Positions 4,022 to 48,048 of a stretch of DNA of 64,000 nt are shown piece by piece (the stretch's first letter is position 1; every line of letters begins with the position of its first letter). The notes below the pieces were generated by a model that saw only the letters and a list, made by a program, of their open reading frames with translations, made no database searches and had not been told where the DNA came from. The translations under genes were made by a program, and so were the position numbers. This DNA is from Escherichia phage E26: sequence record MN655998.1. One strand, given 5' to 3'.

Positions 4022-4050
4022 AACAAAAAAGCCACCCCGAAGGATGGCTG
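4022..4050 (-). terminator. Rho-independent terminator (minus strand) after hoc
   Basis: Minus-strand RNA GCCAUCC-UUCG-GGGUGGC followed by UUUUUU. Confidence 0.6.
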
Positions 4051-4060
4051 ATAGATTTCA

Positions 4061-5275
4061 TTAAGCAGGATGCGTTTCACGAATGCATAGAACTCGCTCT
4101 AACGTATCTCGGTCCAGTTTATGTAAATCTTTGGAATGATACATGAAACCATTGCGAGATTCCATGCAAGTGCAATCACTATATTTTTCTTCCGCTGCCG
4201 CGATTGTCTCCAGATCTTTGGCGTACTTGCTGGTAGAATAAACTTCTCGGTCACGCCACTCTAACCCAGCCTCATTGAATTTAACAATCTCGTCAAATAC
4301 CCACCATCCAATGTAGATAAATGAAGTTTTGCGCCACGGGATCGGGTGTACGTAACGAAACATTTTAACAACTTCCATTGAACATTTTCTACTTGTACTT
4401 GTTGCAACTTCTACTGTTTCATTTTCGATCTGTTGATATAGTTTAGCAACACACCAGAATTTGGCTGTGTCATCGTAAGTAGCACTCTCTTTGAACAGAT
4501 GACCGTCTGGAGTGATAGAAAATCCTTCCTGTGCTTCGCCGACCTCATTACCGATCAGAGTCGGTGACAGTTGCCCTTCGCGCTGCAAATACCAGTTATG
4601 TTTGATCGTCAATTCAGGCATACCGCTAGAATCGCCTACAATGTCCTCTGACACAACATAATTAAGTAAGATCTCATTACCTAGTGCCACGGTCTTTGAT
4701 TCCACCACATCCTGTTCTACGTTCATTGTTGCCAGCATGATTTTAGTCGATGCGCTATTGGCTGAATCTTCCGACTCACCCCACACTTTTACAGTATACA
4801 CGCCGTTTTTATCTGCTGTAAATTTTTGGATTGTAATATCCTGTTTTGTGTCTATAACTTCTTCGCCCTTACTCCAACTATAATGTAGTTCATAGTTGTC
4901 TGATGGAGTCTTCCCACCAGAAAAATTTACTGTTGCATGTAATTCTACGTCTGTTTGTGATGATACGTAGAAATGCTGCGGTTCGGTGATATTTACGATT
5001 AATTCCGCTTCTTCCATGAGGAAAACTTCAGATTCTACTGATGTCGTCGTATCGGTATCTTGTACCGTTACTTTATAGCTACCCGCATTTTCACTTGTTG
5101 CGCCTTCTACAGTTAGCGTAGCTGTGTTATTTTCATGCGGTTGGTCGTCTTTTGTCCATGTATATGTCAAATTGCTGGGTAATGGTTCGTCACCCTCTAC
5201 AGTCGCCGTTAAGGTGAAACCATCGCCAGCAAGAAAACATCTTTTGTCAGATTTAATTGATACTGTGAAAGCCAT
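4061..5275 (-). CDS. hoc: highly immunogenic outer capsid protein Hoc
   Basis: 404 aa; Ig-like N-terminal repeats; C-terminal capsid-binding motifs YVHPIPWR, GWWVFDEIV, ESRNGF matching T4 Hoc. Confidence 0.85.
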   Translation of the reverse strand: MAFTVSIKSDKRCFLAGDGFTLTATVEGDEPLPSNLTYTWTKDDQPHENNTATLTVEGATSENAGSYKVTVQDTDTTTSVESEVFLMEEAELIVNITEPQHFYVSSQTDVELHATVNFSGGKTPSDNYELHYSWSKGEEVIDTKQDITIQKFTADKNGVYTVKVWGESEDSANSASTKIMLATMNVEQDVVESKTVALGNEILLNYVVSEDIVGDSSGMPELTIKHNWYLQREGQLSPTLIGNEVGEAQEGFSITPDGHLFKESATYDDTAKFWCVAKLYQQIENETVEVATSTSRKCSMEVVKMFRYVHPIPWRKTSFIYIGWWVFDEIVKFNEAGLEWRDREVYSTSKYAKDLETIAAAEEKYSDCTCMESRNGFMYHSKDLHKLDRDTLERVLCIRETHPA

Positions 5276-41312: not shown

Positions 41313-41615
41313 TCATATATCAAGCGTATTTTCTGGAGTATCGCCGAAAACTCTATTAACGAGATCCGCCAATACTTCACCGTGGCATTTCTTAGGGTAG
41401 CAAGTACAACCTAAGCGCATATGTCTTAATACTTCTAAATGCGCTCGTGTTATCTCACCATTTCGAATCTTATTATACAACCACTCTTTGTATAATGCAA
41501 TAGCTTTCTCGCGTCCGTATTCTTTGGCGGTGTATGGATTTCCCCACATAGTACCACGCTGAATATTAACATCAAAATCGCTATTGTACTTGTTTACAAC
41601 GCGGCATATTTTCAT
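41313..41615 (-). CDS. DUF4326-like protein
   Basis: 100 aa; N-terminal pattern KIxxVVNK...FDVNIQRGTMWGNPY. Confidence 0.45.
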   Translation of the reverse strand: MKICRVVNKYNSDFDVNIQRGTMWGNPYTAKEYGREKAIALYKEWLYNKIRNGEITRAHLEVLRHMRLGCTCYPKKCHGEVLADLVNRVFGDTPENTLDI

Positions 41616-41650: not shown

Positions 41651-42871
41651 TTAGACTGCCATTTGAGCGGTGATCGCTGGATGGCTTTGATAGTTGTGAA
41701 TTTTAAAGTCTTTCGGAGTTTTTGTCAATACCTCCTCTAAAGATTTAAATTCCGGCAACTCAATTGTTGGTTTATCAAACGGAACACGGTTTAATTGCTC
41801 CATAACTTGATCAAAATGGTTTTTGTAAATGTGAGTATCTCCACCAGAGAAAATCAGTTCTCCTACCTCAAGATCACACATTTTCGCTATGATGTGAGTT
41901 AACAGCGCATAGCTGGCGACGTTAAAGGGCAAGCCCAAAAAGCTGTCTACGCTTCGCTGAAACCACATACAAGACAGTTTACCTTCATTGACGTAGAATT
42001 GCACGAAAGGATGACATACACCTAATACAGCATTATGTGTTCCTTGTACGTTCCATGAGTCAATAATGATCCGGCGATCCGTTGGATTGTTTTTAATTTG
42101 TTCAATCACGTTTTGTAACTGGTCTTCCCAAATCTTCGGGCGATAGACATATTCTTCATCGTCTTTAGTGCTTGATGTGTCTACGTCCATACTAACAAAC
42201 ATCGTGGTATCCGGTGCTAAAATGTCGCCACCCAGATAATCACTATCAAGCAGATAATCGAAATAACCACTATCTACCCATTCCTGGAATCCCCACAAGC
42301 AATATGCATCATTAACAAAATTAGATTGAGTCTTCCAGTGGTCTGCTACCAGAATACAATCAAACTCTTCATAAATCATACCACGCCAGATAGCACATAA
42401 ACGGTCTTCTGTTTCATTGGTTGGCGTAAAGTCTTCTACCCACGGGTGTTTAAATGTATGTGTATATTTGCTCTTAACACGCTTAATTTTGATCTCACCG
42501 TGTGGATGAATCGGTTTGCGTCGCCATGCCATGCCATACATATTCCCAACATTATAACCATTGAATCGCAAAGGATTCTTTTCTTTCATATCAAGACAGT
42601 TGCCGCGCCAAATGTCGAAGGCTTCTTCGTCAAACTTACCGCGTGTAATTTCCTGTAAGCGACGGCGGTCAAGTGATCCCTCCATAAACCATAGCAATTC
42701 GCCAATTACAGAGGCTGTAGCCATCTTTTTAGTGGTAAGTAAGGGGAAACCCTTGCTTAAGTCAATTCGCATTTCTGTACCGAATTTAGAGAGCGTACCT
42801 ACCCCAGTTCGGTCGTCACGAGGCCAACCATTATCAAGAACATCACGCAATAGTTTCAAATATTCTTTCAT
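41651..42871 (-). CDS. td: thymidylate synthase with large in-frame insertion
   Basis: 406 aa versus about 286 in T4 Td; conserved ThyA blocks flank an extra segment of about 115 aa. Confidence 0.85.
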   Translation of the reverse strand: MKEYLKLLRDVLDNGWPRDDRTGVGTLSKFGTEMRIDLSKGFPLLTTKKMATASVIGELLWFMEGSLDRRRLQEITRGKFDEEAFDIWRGNCLDMKEKNPLRFNGYNVGNMYGMAWRRKPIHPHGEIKIKRVKSKYTHTFKHPWVEDFTPTNETEDRLCAIWRGMIYEEFDCILVADHWKTQSNFVNDAYCLWGFQEWVDSGYFDYLLDSDYLGGDILAPDTTMFVSMDVDTSSTKDDEEYVYRPKIWEDQLQNVIEQIKNNPTDRRIIIDSWNVQGTHNAVLGVCHPFVQFYVNEGKLSCMWFQRSVDSFLGLPFNVASYALLTHIIAKMCDLEVGELIFSGGDTHIYKNHFDQVMEQLNRVPFDKPTIELPEFKSLEEVLTKTPKDFKIHNYQSHPAITAQMAV

Positions 42872-44162: not shown

Positions 44163-44191
44163 TATTATACATCATCTGTGTTCGGCGTCAA
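44163..44191 (-). promoter_or_regulatory. PeSL-like early promoter cassette 17
   Basis: TTGACG-N16/17-TATAAT. Confidence 0.5.
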
Positions 44192-44517
44192 CCTTTTTGT
44201 TCCATGAAAAGCGGTGCTGTTTCTTCTTTCAGTTTAATAACTAGCGCGGAAACTTCATCAAGAAAATCTTTTTCCATATGAGCAAGCATTGATTTAGAAT
44301 CTTTGATGACTTTCAAAGAATATTCACTTAGATTTCCGTTTCCTAACAATAATGCAGGATACACACTATGTGGGATCTCGATTTCATGATATTCGCTCAT
44401 AGTATAATATTTGTGAATTTTTAAATCTATATTTCTTCGTTGTACGTCCACATCAGCAATGACATACAGAAGTTCGATTTTATCGCTTTTCTGGGAAAGG
44501 GTAGCATTCAAAAACAT
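44188..44517 (-). CDS. hypothetical protein
   Basis: ORF track 109 aa. Confidence 0.5.
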   Translation of the reverse strand: MFLNATLSQKSDKIELLYVIADVDVQRRNIDLKIHKYYTMSEYHEIEIPHSVYPALLLGNGNLSEYSLKVIKDSKSMLAHMEKDFLDEVSALVIKLKEETAPLFMEQKG

Positions 44518-44599: not shown

Positions 44600-44626
44600 T
44601 AAAAAAGCCTCCCCGAAGGAAGGCTT
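44600..44626 (-). terminator. Rho-independent terminator (minus strand) after gene 32
   Basis: Minus-strand RNA GCCUUCC-UUCG-GGGAGGC followed by UUUUUU. Confidence 0.6.
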
Positions 44627-44635
44627 TAAAATTCA

Positions 44636-45610
44636 TTACATCCCTAACAGAGCGTCAAGATCATCCAGATCAGAAGCGGAGGAAGTACCGCCACCCAGGT
44701 CCAGAGATGCCATCAGGTCATCAGCGGAAGAATCTAACGCCGTGCTAGCTGCGTTAATACCAACTACAGTGCTAGCTGCGGTCATACCAGAATCGAATGC
44801 ATTCATCTGTGCGTCAAAATCGTCAAGCTGGCTGTTAATCGCTGCCGCAGCACTGGAAGCCGCAGCACCAGCTACCATAGAAACGCCCATAGTTTTCTTA
44901 AATTTGGTTTCCAGTTCATCGAACGGTTTAAACTGGCTAGGCGCTACAATCTCACTCAGATCAACCATGTTTTCCATCAGATATTTCTGATATGCTTCGT
45001 CTTCAATTTTCGGAAGCTGTGATTGCTGCATGAAACGAGAATCATCATAGTTCTGGTGTTTATCAACCTTCTTAGCTTTCAGGAGGAAGTTAGCACCGGA
45101 GAACACACAAGTTACATCTACCGGAACTTCGCCCATATCGGTATTCACGTTCACCATCGCAACGATCTTATCATAAATTTTCTGACCGAAGCGGAATTTG
45201 AATACCTTACCTTCGTTTTCTGGTGCTTGAGGATCTTTCAGTACCAGAATATTTGCGTAGTAAGACGCTTTACGTTTAATCAGTTGCCATTCGGTTTTAT
45301 CGGTATTGTACAGATCTTTTTCGTTAATATATTTGCACACCGGGCAAGAATCAAAATCACCGTGGGTGCTGGAGCAGTTTTCCCAATACCATTTTCCATT
45401 AACTTTGAAGGAATGGTTTACCAGTTTCACAATCGGCAGACCGTCTTCTGTCTTAGACGGCAGGAAGCGAATCAGGGCTTCACCGTTACCCGCTGCATCA
45501 GTCTTAATCTTCCACTCTTTCGGATCTTCTTTGGAGAAACCGTTGCCACCTTTCAGTGCGGCCAGTTGAGCTTGCAGTTTGGAGCTATCTTGACGTTTAA
45601 ACATATTCAC
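44636..45610 (-). CDS. 32: single-stranded DNA-binding protein gp32
   Basis: 324 aa; [20 protein letters not shown] zinc site, [12 protein letters not shown]; colinear with T4 gp32. Confidence 0.92.
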
Positions 45611-45657
45611 TATTCCTTCTTTTGATTAATTTACTAGACTATTATACAGATTTAAAT

Positions 45658-46251
45658 TTACTTGTCAAATACTTTATTAATTATATCTAACAACTTTGGT
45701 TTTCTATTTTCAAATTCTAACATTTCTTCGGGAGAAATGTCAACTACTTCTGTTTTATGAAAGAAATCAGGATCTATTGCATCGGCAACAAAGTTTCTAG
45801 CTAACGCAGCGGCCTTTTCGTAATCATAAAGACCTAGATACAAAAGTTTCCCTCTATCAACCTGAATACATGCTTTATATTTACCATCTCGTTTATAAAA
45901 ACTTACTCCGATATACTCAGACGTCTTACCTTTTTGCTTTCCAACATTTCTTGAGTTTTGTTGGTCGGTCGCATCTCTCAAGTTTTCAATCCGATTATCG
46001 GTTATAACTCTGTTTACATGGTCAACACATTTTGGCATATATCCATGATGCATGAAGAAAATTATTCTATGCTCTTTGTGCAATCGACCATCAAACTTAA
46101 CTACTCTATATCCAGTTCTTGGATTTACATAGCCCGCTCTAGATCCGACTTTATGCTTTCGGTTTGTCGATATCTTGCGAATCAGCTTACCGTTATCATA
46201 TTTAAAGAGTTCATGACAACGAGCATACAATTCAGGGTCATATGTTTTCAC
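45658..46251 (-). CDS. HNH endonuclease with AP2-like DNA-binding domain (freestanding)
   Basis: 197 aa; HVNRVITDNRIENLRDATDQQNSRN (HNH_3) plus SEYIGVSFYKRDGKYKACIQ (AP2-like). Confidence 0.7.
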   Translation of the reverse strand: MKTYDPELYARCHELFKYDNGKLIRKISTNRKHKVGSRAGYVNPRTGYRVVKFDGRLHKEHRIIFFMHHGYMPKCVDHVNRVITDNRIENLRDATDQQNSRNVGKQKGKTSEYIGVSFYKRDGKYKACIQVDRGKLLYLGLYDYEKAAALARNFVADAIDPDFFHKTEVVDISPEEMLEFENRKPKLLDIINKVFDK

Positions 46252-46915
46252 CTTTTAACCTCGATATTTCTTTACACTCTTTAACTACTTTAACAAATAA
46301 TGCTCTTGCTTTTGCGGCGTCAATAACAAGTAGTTTCTTGTACGCCTTCATTTTAACACTATAAGTTTGCCAAATCAAGTCTTTGGCTACCTTGTCGTGT
46401 TCGTCGATTATATTTAGAAAGCTATCTAACAACATAAACGACTCAAACGATATAATCCGATTTTGCAGTAGTTTAAAGATACCGCTTGTTTCGGTTGCGG
46501 GATTGTATGTAATTAGCTCTTTAAGAGTAACCCCGCGTTTCTCGGAGAAGTATACCAGACTTTTAATGTCATCGTCAAATCGTGTTGCTGCATCGGTTAT
46601 CTTTCCTATGTATTCCATATAAAAGCCGTATGCGTCAACATCAGTGATTTCACCTACCCATGCATCGGTATTGGCTACCAGATTGCTTAGGAATAGGAAG
46701 TATAATTCTCTTAGATTGTACTTTTCCGCTAATTTTGCGAAATAATACTTATCTCTGCGTTTATTGAATGCGGCATCAGACAACCGCATCCTCCAATTGT
46801 ATTTTACGCAATCATAACGCCCGTTCATATGAGCTTTCATCATGCAATATAACATATACACAGATTTAGCATTAATTCGCATATCTGGATCTGGAGGAAG
46901 ACGGTTTCTGATCAT
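46238..46915 (-). CDS. 59: gp59 helicase loader
   Basis: 225 aa; NGRYDCVKYNWRMRLSDAAFNKRRDKY, LVANTDAW, FKLLQNRIISFESFMLLDSFLNIID match T4 gp59. Confidence 0.9.
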   Translation of the reverse strand: MIRNRLPPDPDMRINAKSVYMLYCMMKAHMNGRYDCVKYNWRMRLSDAAFNKRRDKYYFAKLAEKYNLRELYFLFLSNLVANTDAWVGEITDVDAYGFYMEYIGKITDAATRFDDDIKSLVYFSEKRGVTLKELITYNPATETSGIFKLLQNRIISFESFMLLDSFLNIIDEHDKVAKDLIWQTYSVKMKAYKKLLVIDAAKARALFVKVVKECKEISRLKGENI

Positions 46916-46924
46916 ACATACCCC

Positions 46925-47194
46925 TTAAATATCGAGAGTGTTGGTCGGTTCGTCGATCACTCCCTTCCTGAGCGTTCTATTTACTATACATTCTTGTGTG
47001 ATCTTGTCAATAATGGACACCGGAATATACTTCTGATAGTGACCATATTCTATAGAGTTTTCCTCTACAAACTGAGTGGTCGCTTCAAGATAAGTCAATC
47101 CCTCTTCAACAACCAGTTTTTCGATTGCAAGACCGTTTGCTGTTTTGTTCGCGGCTTTTACCGCATGTTCATTAAGCATTGAACACCCGATCAT
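46925..47194 (-). CDS. 33: late transcription co-activator gp33
   Basis: 89 aa; segment TYLEATTQFVEENSI resembles T4 gp33; synteny 59-33-dsbA. Confidence 0.65.
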   Translation of the reverse strand: MIGCSMLNEHAVKAANKTANGLAIEKLVVEEGLTYLEATTQFVEENSIEYGHYQKYIPVSIIDKITQECIVNRTLRKGVIDEPTNTLDI

Positions 47195-47451: not shown

Positions 47452-48048
47452 TTAACCCTCTTTAGTCATTAATTGAAAACCACGTTCAGCTTTTGAAATT
47501 TCGCTAGGACTTAAATCGTCACCAACATATTCTAGCATCATTTCTCGGATAATGTCAAGTGCTTTTTCATCACCTGATTTTAACTCGAACTCAAGTTCAT
47601 AGTGAGCCTCTCCCATTCTTTCGCCGACTTTACAATAATAGAAAGTGTCTTTGCACATTTCCACTATAGCACACTCAAAGTCAAGTGTCAATGACTTGCG
47701 GTATGTCATTACTTGCAATAAAGGAACGATAAGGTCGGAGTTTACGCCTAGACTATCAACATAGTGATAGAAATCATCCGTTGTTGAAAAAGTAATTTCT
47801 TCTCGGTTGAATAGTCCAGATTCACTATCACCTATTTTGACCATGATCAATGATCTGTTAACGTCAAGTCGAGCATAAATTCCTTTTCGACGCAGTGCAT
47901 GATCTTCGGTATCATAATAAAATTCGTGTTTTAATATGTTATATCGATCGACGAGATTGTACCCGTCATACATTGCTACCCACAAATCACAGATGGTTTC
48001 GACGCCAATTGGTGATTGTGCATAGTATTTTAATTCAAGTTCTTTCAT
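47452..48048 (-). CDS. CYTH-like (triphosphate tunnel metalloenzyme) protein
   Basis: 198 aa; N-terminal ELELKY (ExExK) and C-terminal HYELEFELK acidic motifs typical of CYTH domains. Confidence 0.5.
   Translation of the reverse strand: MKELELKYYAQSPIGVETICDLWVAMYDGYNLVDRYNILKHEFYYDTEDHALRRKGIYARLDVNRSLIMVKIGDSESGLFNREEITFSTTDDFYHYVDSLGVNSDLIVPLLQVMTYRKSLTLDFECAIVEMCKDTFYYCKVGERMGEAHYELEFELKSGDEKALDIIREMMLEYVGDDLSPSEISKAERGFQLMTKEG

Follow-up and report, generated by a model that had tools for sequence, protein, structure and literature searches.

The 197-codon open reading frame (ORF) that separates genes 59 and 32 in the phage DNA analysed here (a stretch of 64,000 nt, hereafter the window) is very probably a free-standing homing endonuclease gene (HEG) of the HNH-AP2 class, carried by an RB49/JSE-like Krischvirus. 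With clean boundaries, it is inserted in the replication module where genes 59 and 32 meet. The kind of cut that its product would make (a nick or a double-strand break), where its target lies and the present-day mobility of the gene are matters that we infer.

Results

The source of the 64-kb window is a T4-related coliphage of the RB49/JSE/Phi1 type (a Krischvirus), and the window's closest relatives over 24 kb are ELT4 and 011D4 (~97% identical). The HEG ORF (45658..46251, minus strand) is intact, begins with a GTG codon and encodes 197 aa followed by a stop. The initial annotation had placed a 197-aa ORF at 45658-46251 and quoted two peptide strings from it, both of which are present in the translation. 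Upstream lies gene 59, which encodes the helicase loader (46238..46915, minus strand; Pfam T4_Gp59_N and T4_Gp59_C, PF08993 and PF08994), and directly downstream is gene 32, encoding the single-stranded DNA binding protein (44636..45604, minus strand; Pfam gp32, PF08804, 1e-51), whose start codon (ATG, 45604) was placed by aligning the sequence with the gene annotated in JSE. Farther upstream of gene 59 we found gp33, DsbA, a CYTH-domain ORF and RNase H, and farther downstream of gene 32 two small ORFs and then frd, all of them on the minus strand. The HEG ORF has a GC content of 35%, lower than that of the window (40%) and of gene 32 (45%).

A Pfam search with the HEG protein detected HNH_3 (PF13392) at aa 61-101 (46.9 bits, E 2.1e-12; cut-off 24.8), and the protein matched phrog_99 in PHROGs (E 2e-53). 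On the evidence of Pfam, conservation and the structural model described below, this segment (45949..46071, minus strand) is a His-Me finger nuclease core with D77-H78, N86, N90 and N99. When 54 homologues were aligned, H78, N86, I88, E89 and N90 were invariant in the family and D77, N99, N102, H61 and R62 at least 90% conserved, a pattern that corresponds to the HNH_3 signature. By analogy with I-HmuI, we take the histidine after the aspartate to be the catalytic general base and the asparagines to include a structural and a metal-binding one. This conservation suggests that the protein is enzymatically active. The HNH_3 core claimed in the initial annotation is thus borne out by the Pfam score and by the invariant H78, N86 and N90. 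The Pfam and PHROGs matches of the protein were to HNH families and AP2 only, and the GIY-YIG family was absent among them.

An AP2-like segment had also been proposed to follow the nuclease core. For this segment, the Pfam match to AP2 (PF00847, aa 112-153) reached 28.3 bits (E 2.2e-6), under the cut-off of 33.3, and we therefore sought additional evidence from profiles and from the predicted fold. A single-sequence search of the PDB matched the AP2 domain of Arabidopsis WRI1 (E 4.6e-5), and 22 of the 57 homologues retrieved by database search carried precomputed PF00847 matches. When the profile built from the 54 aligned homologues was compared with the PDB, just six sequences matched: the plant AP2/ERF domains of WRI1 (2e-8), TEM1 (1e-6), ERF096 (2e-4) and AtERF1 (two entries, 5e-3), plus I-HmuI (PDB 1u3e, E 1.4e-7), the last over I-HmuI residues 23-114. 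The AlphaFold2 model computed from the homologue alignment (mean pLDDT 95.6, pTM 0.84) displayed a beta-beta-alpha unit in the HNH part (E75-78, E91-94, H96-101) and, in the AP2 part, a three-stranded antiparallel sheet packed on one helix (aa 116-159). According to the model and the profile alignment, the N-terminal region (aa 1-60; 46072..46251, minus strand) would consist of one helix and two beta-hairpins, as in the N-terminal part of I-HmuI, and the AP2-type DNA-binding domain (aa 112-160; 45772..45918, minus strand) of three beta-strands and one helix. A long helix is predicted at the C-terminus (aa 174-196; 45664..45732, minus strand), with its final codons entering the gene 32 promoter. 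This C-terminal tail of ~35 aa is missing in most homologues, and most of the 54 end ~10-15 aa past the AP2 helix. As judged from profiles and predicted fold, both domains are real, and the protein joins an I-HmuI-like nuclease half to an AP2 DNA-binding half. The HMM comparisons, in which a lack of any match would count against the assignment, therefore yielded matches for HNH as well as for AP2, the latter sub-threshold in Pfam and backed by the 54-sequence profile and the model. In the 64-kb window, tblastn for paralogues of the HEG gave chance-level matches only (E at least 0.39), and one of these (42112..41873) falls within the thymidylate synthase core.

To examine the distribution of the gene we used megablast with positions 44600-47000, which matched 68 phage records. 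The whole query was covered in 11 records, and the other close relatives (~98% identical) matched in two pieces with a coverage of 76%, which means that they lack the HEG ORF. With the HEG protein as a tblastn query, identity was 99% in one record (011D4) and 84-85% in ten (Skers, kvi, Cognac, FL20, ELT4, MIZ4, MIZ5, pEJ01, G2494 and Makalu_002), and all remaining matches were below 60%. Since gp59 was found at 95% identity or more in 58 records, the gene is present in 11 of ~58 Krischvirus records, i.e. ~19% of those sequenced, and a search of IMG/VR with gp59 added three close loci, all without the HEG (HEG-). The flanks are 98-99% identical between HEG+ and HEG- Krischvirus. The comparison of the 32-59 junction in related phages thus showed the insertion that the initial annotation had supposed, with near-identical Krischvirus genomes lacking the ORF. 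None of the 11 HEG+ records has a disrupted ORF, and the presence of the gene crosses species: kvi and 011D4, of species RB49, are HEG+ and RB49 itself is HEG-, and within species gec3s Makalu_002 carries the gene and GEC-3S does not. Such a patchy and incongruent distribution is the pattern of a mobile element, although ordinary recombination could give the same.

Two alleles with the same junctions and 85% protein identity were distinguished, allele A in the window and 011D4 and allele B in the other ten records. Codons 1-39 differ between them by a single synonymous change, and the remainder is deeply diverged. Taken overall, the dN/dS ratio between A and B is 0.15, and it falls to 0.05 in the AP2 region (dS ~2.7, dN 0.14); the HEG protein is under purifying selection in both allele lineages. 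The divergence of the alleles is far deeper than that of their flanks, which argues that the gene has been kept functional and drawn from a wider gene pool. The alleles are mosaic; compared with the backbone in which they reside (98-99% identical), they are of much greater age or more foreign origin. In addition, the gene 59 sequence that accompanies allele A at 46595-46625 is of two haplotypes, JSE-like in the window and RB49-like in 011D4.

The insertion boundaries were determined in an alignment of eight HEG+ and 12 HEG- loci. The inserted cassette (45669..46262, minus strand) is 594 nt long and takes the place of 24 nt of the empty 59/32 junction (TCAATTAAAA[G/A]C[C/A]GAAACAAATAG), which makes the locus 570 nt longer. 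Identical flanks reach 46263 on one side and resume at 45668 on the other, the left and right junctions are the same in all eight HEG+ loci, and the 24-nt junction is kept in 12/12 HEG- loci. The gap between genes 59 and 32 is 60 nt in the HEG- phages JSE, RB49, Phi1, GEC-3S, PHB13, MIZ6, G37-3 and Sf20. In another HEG- phage, KMB43, the annotated gap is 115 nt instead of 60, and ~54 additional nt close to the start of gene 32 have the appearance of a local duplication of the early part of that gene. At its upstream side the insert rewrites the last eight codons of gene 59, which ends in ...EISRLKGENI* instead of the ...EISQLKTETNS* of JSE, and 14 nt at the 3' end of gene 59 are shared with the HEG start. 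Within this rewritten gene 59 end, the insert opens with four bases, GAGG, that form a ribosome-binding site (46259..46262, minus strand) located 7 nt ahead of the GTG and identical in the eight HEG+ loci.

At the other end, the ORF runs into the resident sigma-70-type promoter of gene 32 (45641..45668, minus strand), which a promoter scan identified by a TTGACA box, a 16-nt spacer and a TATAAT box (12/12 matches). The HEG ends in the spacer that separates the two boxes of this promoter (stop codon at 45658-45660), and the -35 hexamer contributes to the last three HEG codons (F-D-K). The same promoter exists at empty sites, where the gene 59 stop codon falls in that -35 hexamer, and it is annotated as a promoter in GEC-3S. 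A second, candidate promoter-like site in the HEG 3' region (45714..45743, minus strand; TTGACA, 18 nt, TAGAAT plus an upstream TG) was suggested by a consensus scan. Upstream of the HEG, the T4-type late promoter TATAAATA had no match between 30456 and 49233. An RNA hairpin hiding the ribosome-binding site at the HEG start, of the type reported for mobE and I-TevI, was also sought, and the fold was no better than that of shuffled sequences (z 0.41). Considering that the start overlaps gene 59, that the resident promoter lies at the 3' end and that neither a late promoter nor such an RNA structure was detected, the HEG looks like a cassette without a promoter of its own that is read through from gene 59.

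We also searched the flanks for markers of a target site. No alignment column outside the insert separates all eight HEG+ from all 12 HEG- genomes. The best one, 45593 in codon 4 of gene 32, bears T in 8/8 HEG+ and 3/12 HEG- genomes, in raw counts that ignore relatedness. Position 46673 (C/T) was considered as an immunity marker because it split the first seven genomes, but an exact-word search found the C allele in the HEG- phages MIZ2, MIZ3 and MIZ6; most HEG+ phages were not returned by that search, which indicates that they differ within the 41-nt stretch used. A triple synonymous change in a serine codon (AGC/TCT, 45584-45586) was likewise discarded, since HEG+ Makalu_002 and pEJ01 carry TCT. 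As no flanking column separates the two groups, the junction itself is the only constant difference between HEG+ and HEG- genomes. From the sequence, the recognition site may span or abut the 24-nt junction and would then be destroyed by the insertion.

The leader of gene 32 (45604..45640) and its first codons exist in the population in two forms, MFKR... and MFRR/IFRR.... The divergent leader found beside allele B was considered as a co-conversion tract borne by the HEG, an idea weakened by the finding of the same leader in the HEG- IMG/VR contigs L008 and L010; the MFRR/IFRR form is therefore not tied to the HEG.

Other variable loci were observed in the vicinity. Just past gene 32 there is a 109-aa ORF (44188..44517, minus strand) with neither a Pfam nor a PHROG match, and this slot downstream of gene 32 holds an ORF of ~392-460 aa in Skers (where it is annotated as a putative GIY-YIG nuclease), GEC-3S and Phi1 and is empty in JSE. 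Variable slots thus exist on both sides of gene 32 and are probably HEG-related. The CYTH-domain ORF between dsbA and rnh (47452..48048, minus strand) is a local divergence hot spot, with an identity at ~47700-48000 of 45-57% to Skers and 74-86% to Phi1, the neighbour genes being more than 95% identical. The thymidylate synthase gene (41651..42871, minus strand) encodes 406 aa and covers the whole 266-position Pfam profile (E 2e-84), and it therefore carries an in-frame insertion of ~140 aa at about aa 118-250. The gene is similarly long in other Krischvirus (407 aa in JSE), and its T4 counterpart, td, is the host of the I-TevI intron. Between nrdA and td there is a DUF4326 protein of 100 aa (41313..41615, minus strand; E 6.5e-23).

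Discussion

The gene belongs to a known and ordinary HEG class, and it is already annotated in sister phages, as ten GenBank records label it 'HNH endonuclease' or 'homing endonuclease'. The AP2-HNH class, which citing papers (PMC1524935, PMC10448857) credit to Magnani, Sjolander and Hake (2004) for phages, cyanobacteria and ciliates, was recognised in T4-related phages by Nolan et al. (2006; PMC1524935), who described RB49ORF040c as 'AP2 domain, HNH endonuclease' and assigned RB43ORF027c likewise. The HEG described here has in common with these genes the order of domains (HNH at the N-terminus, AP2 at the C-terminus), the free-standing condition and the presence in the RB49 lineage. Paralogues ~40-43% identical are found elsewhere in Krischvirus genomes (e.g. 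G5211, Makalu_003 and KFS-EC). It differs in its site at the 59/32 junction, in having only ~40-45% identity to homologues outside the locus and in the extra C-terminal helix tail of ~35 aa. The IPA-HNH HEGs of vibriophage ICP1, which in the account of Barth et al. (2023; PMC10448857) lie at the edges of regions that related phages exchange, also join an N-terminal HNH to a C-terminal AP2, but their HNH domains are too divergent for Pfam HNH_3, whereas the protein studied here scores well above that cut-off. As to MobA-E of T4, they resemble it in being free-standing HNH HEGs between conserved genes, several of them promoter-less (PMC2988022), and differ in their insertion sites; an AP2 domain is not reported for them in the sources used here. 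Judging from titles and abstracts, we found in the literature no description of a 59/32-junction HEG in Krischvirus.

The initial annotation had reasoned from the adjacency of genes 32 and 59 in T4, and this part of it has to be corrected, because the T4 record carries the GIY-YIG gene segG between them. Adjacency does hold as the usual state: genes 59 and 32 are 3-130 nt apart with nothing annotated between them in RB69, Serratia X20, Klebsiella KpnM6E1, Acinetobacter AC4, RB43 and Stenotrophomonas IME13. According to Edgell et al. (PMC2988022), segG has its target in gene 32, contains embedded gene 32 promoters and, together with several mob genes of T4, is a promoter-less cassette that uses upstream transcription. 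SegG (formerly 32.1) and the Krischvirus HEG coincide in junction, in orientation, in being promoter-less cassettes and in having gene 32 promoter elements in or overlapping the ORF. They differ in the nuclease family (GIY-YIG vs HNH) and in the DNA-binding module, and have no sequence similarity; moreover, the gene 32 target and the mobility of SegG are experimental findings, whereas the present HEG is known from its sequence. The 59/32 junction has therefore been invaded independently at least twice by unrelated families, GIY-YIG in T4 and HNH-AP2 in Krischvirus. A site inherently suited to HEG insertion would be a more speculative and rather improbable reading of this. We do not extend the finding to a 'hot spot', as the junction was occupied only in T4 and Krischvirus and empty in the six other genera sampled, and the claim is accordingly limited to two independent invasions.

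A working model can be proposed for the HEG. The protein would be a modular monomer in which I-HmuI-like N-terminal hairpins and an HNH active site are combined with an AP2 domain and a long C-terminal helix, the last two replacing the DNA-binding helices of I-HmuI and supplying sequence-specific DNA binding. I-HmuI itself, from Bacillus phage SPO1, is a strand-specific nickase that, unlike this protein, is intron-encoded and has a helical (helix-turn-helix) rather than an AP2 C-terminal DNA-binding part. Transcription would proceed by read-through together with gene 59, and translation from the HEG's own GAGG/GTG site. When HEG+ and HEG- Krischvirus co-infect a cell, the enzyme would nick or cut the HEG- genome at or beside the intact 59/32 junction, with cleavage expected at or near TCAATTAAAAGCCGAAACAAATAG, and the recombination-dependent repair of the phage would copy the cassette into the cut genome. 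HEG+ genomes, in which the insert replaces the 24-nt junction, would thereby escape cutting. Enzymes of the I-HmuI type also cut DNA carrying their own gene, so that protection by disruption of the site would not be required. A search for cleavage or homing data on the protein or its close relatives returned none.

Three other explanations were weighed against this model. The nuclease could serve mainly to damage the 59/32 region of co-infecting HEG- relatives, so that the progeny inherit mostly the carrier's versions of both essential replication genes and the spread of the HEG itself is secondary. We consider this emphasis unlikely, but worth retaining: the junction is the one used by segG, whose target is gene 32 (the T2 gene 32 is excluded by SegG), and the bias towards T at 45593 is what a short co-conversion tract would yield. 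That bias loses weight from the relatedness that the counts disregard and from the lack of association at 46673 and 45584-45586, and such marker exclusion is in any case another emphasis on the same mechanism rather than a separate one. It is improbable, in our opinion, that the gene represents one ancient insertion, no longer mobile, that persists solely through the rarity of exact excision or through the overlap of its 3' end with the gene 32 promoter, with ordinary recombination and loss accounting for its patchiness. The identity of the junctions in all HEG+ loci is what a single insertion produces, and would also follow, without current homing, from one old insertion plus recombination and loss. 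The HEG stop and last codons do lie inside the gene 32 promoter, with a second promoter-like site within the ORF, an arrangement that Edgell et al. (PMC2988022) argue favours the retention of segG. However, the empty sites hold an intact promoter and no HEG remnant, which shows that the gene 32 promoter is independent of the HEG. Also against an immobile relic, the ORF is intact in 11 records with catalytic residues that agree with the family invariants, and the dN/dS of 0.15 with saturated synonymous divergence between alleles indicates long-term selection on the protein.

The least probable explanation, and a very remote one, is that of a domesticated regulator, with an AP2 domain that binds near the gene 32 promoter and a catalytically dead HNH. 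It is prompted by the GenBank label 'Fis family transcriptional regulator' given to the 99%-identical protein of 011D4 (4032..4625 of locus L002), by the fact that AP2 is best known from transcription factors and by the position of the HEG next to the gene 32 promoter. The label receives no support from profile searches: the protein has no Fis or HTH family match and Pfam gives HNH_3 and AP2 only. Furthermore, the catalytic His and Asn residues of the HNH are all present, the ten other records annotate an HNH or homing endonuclease, and the absence of the HEG from ~80% of close relatives means that it is not part of a conserved regulatory circuit. A second, regulatory role added to that of a homing endonuclease, in which the AP2 domain and the C-terminal helix would bind beside the gene 32 promoter and tune the expression of gene 32 or of the HEG itself, is to our mind quite improbable, too. 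With the end of gene 59 rewritten and the ORF ending in the promoter spacer, half of the presumed recognition site would stay beside the gene 32 promoter, and a homing endonuclease that acts as an autorepressor exists in I-TevI. If true, the gene would be a HEG on its way to becoming a regulator, a path also proposed for the plant AP2 factors.

We thus retain the reading of the gene as a homing endonuclease gene. Its import beyond annotation is small, and what it corrects is the naming of a gene called 'Fis family transcriptional regulator' in one record and 'hypothetical' in others. More speculatively, the protein might offer a compact scaffold for a site-specific nickase or nuclease. For the biology of these phages, the existence of many HEG+ and HEG- Krischvirus that are otherwise 98-99% identical provides a natural system in which to study HNH-AP2 homing and co-conversion.
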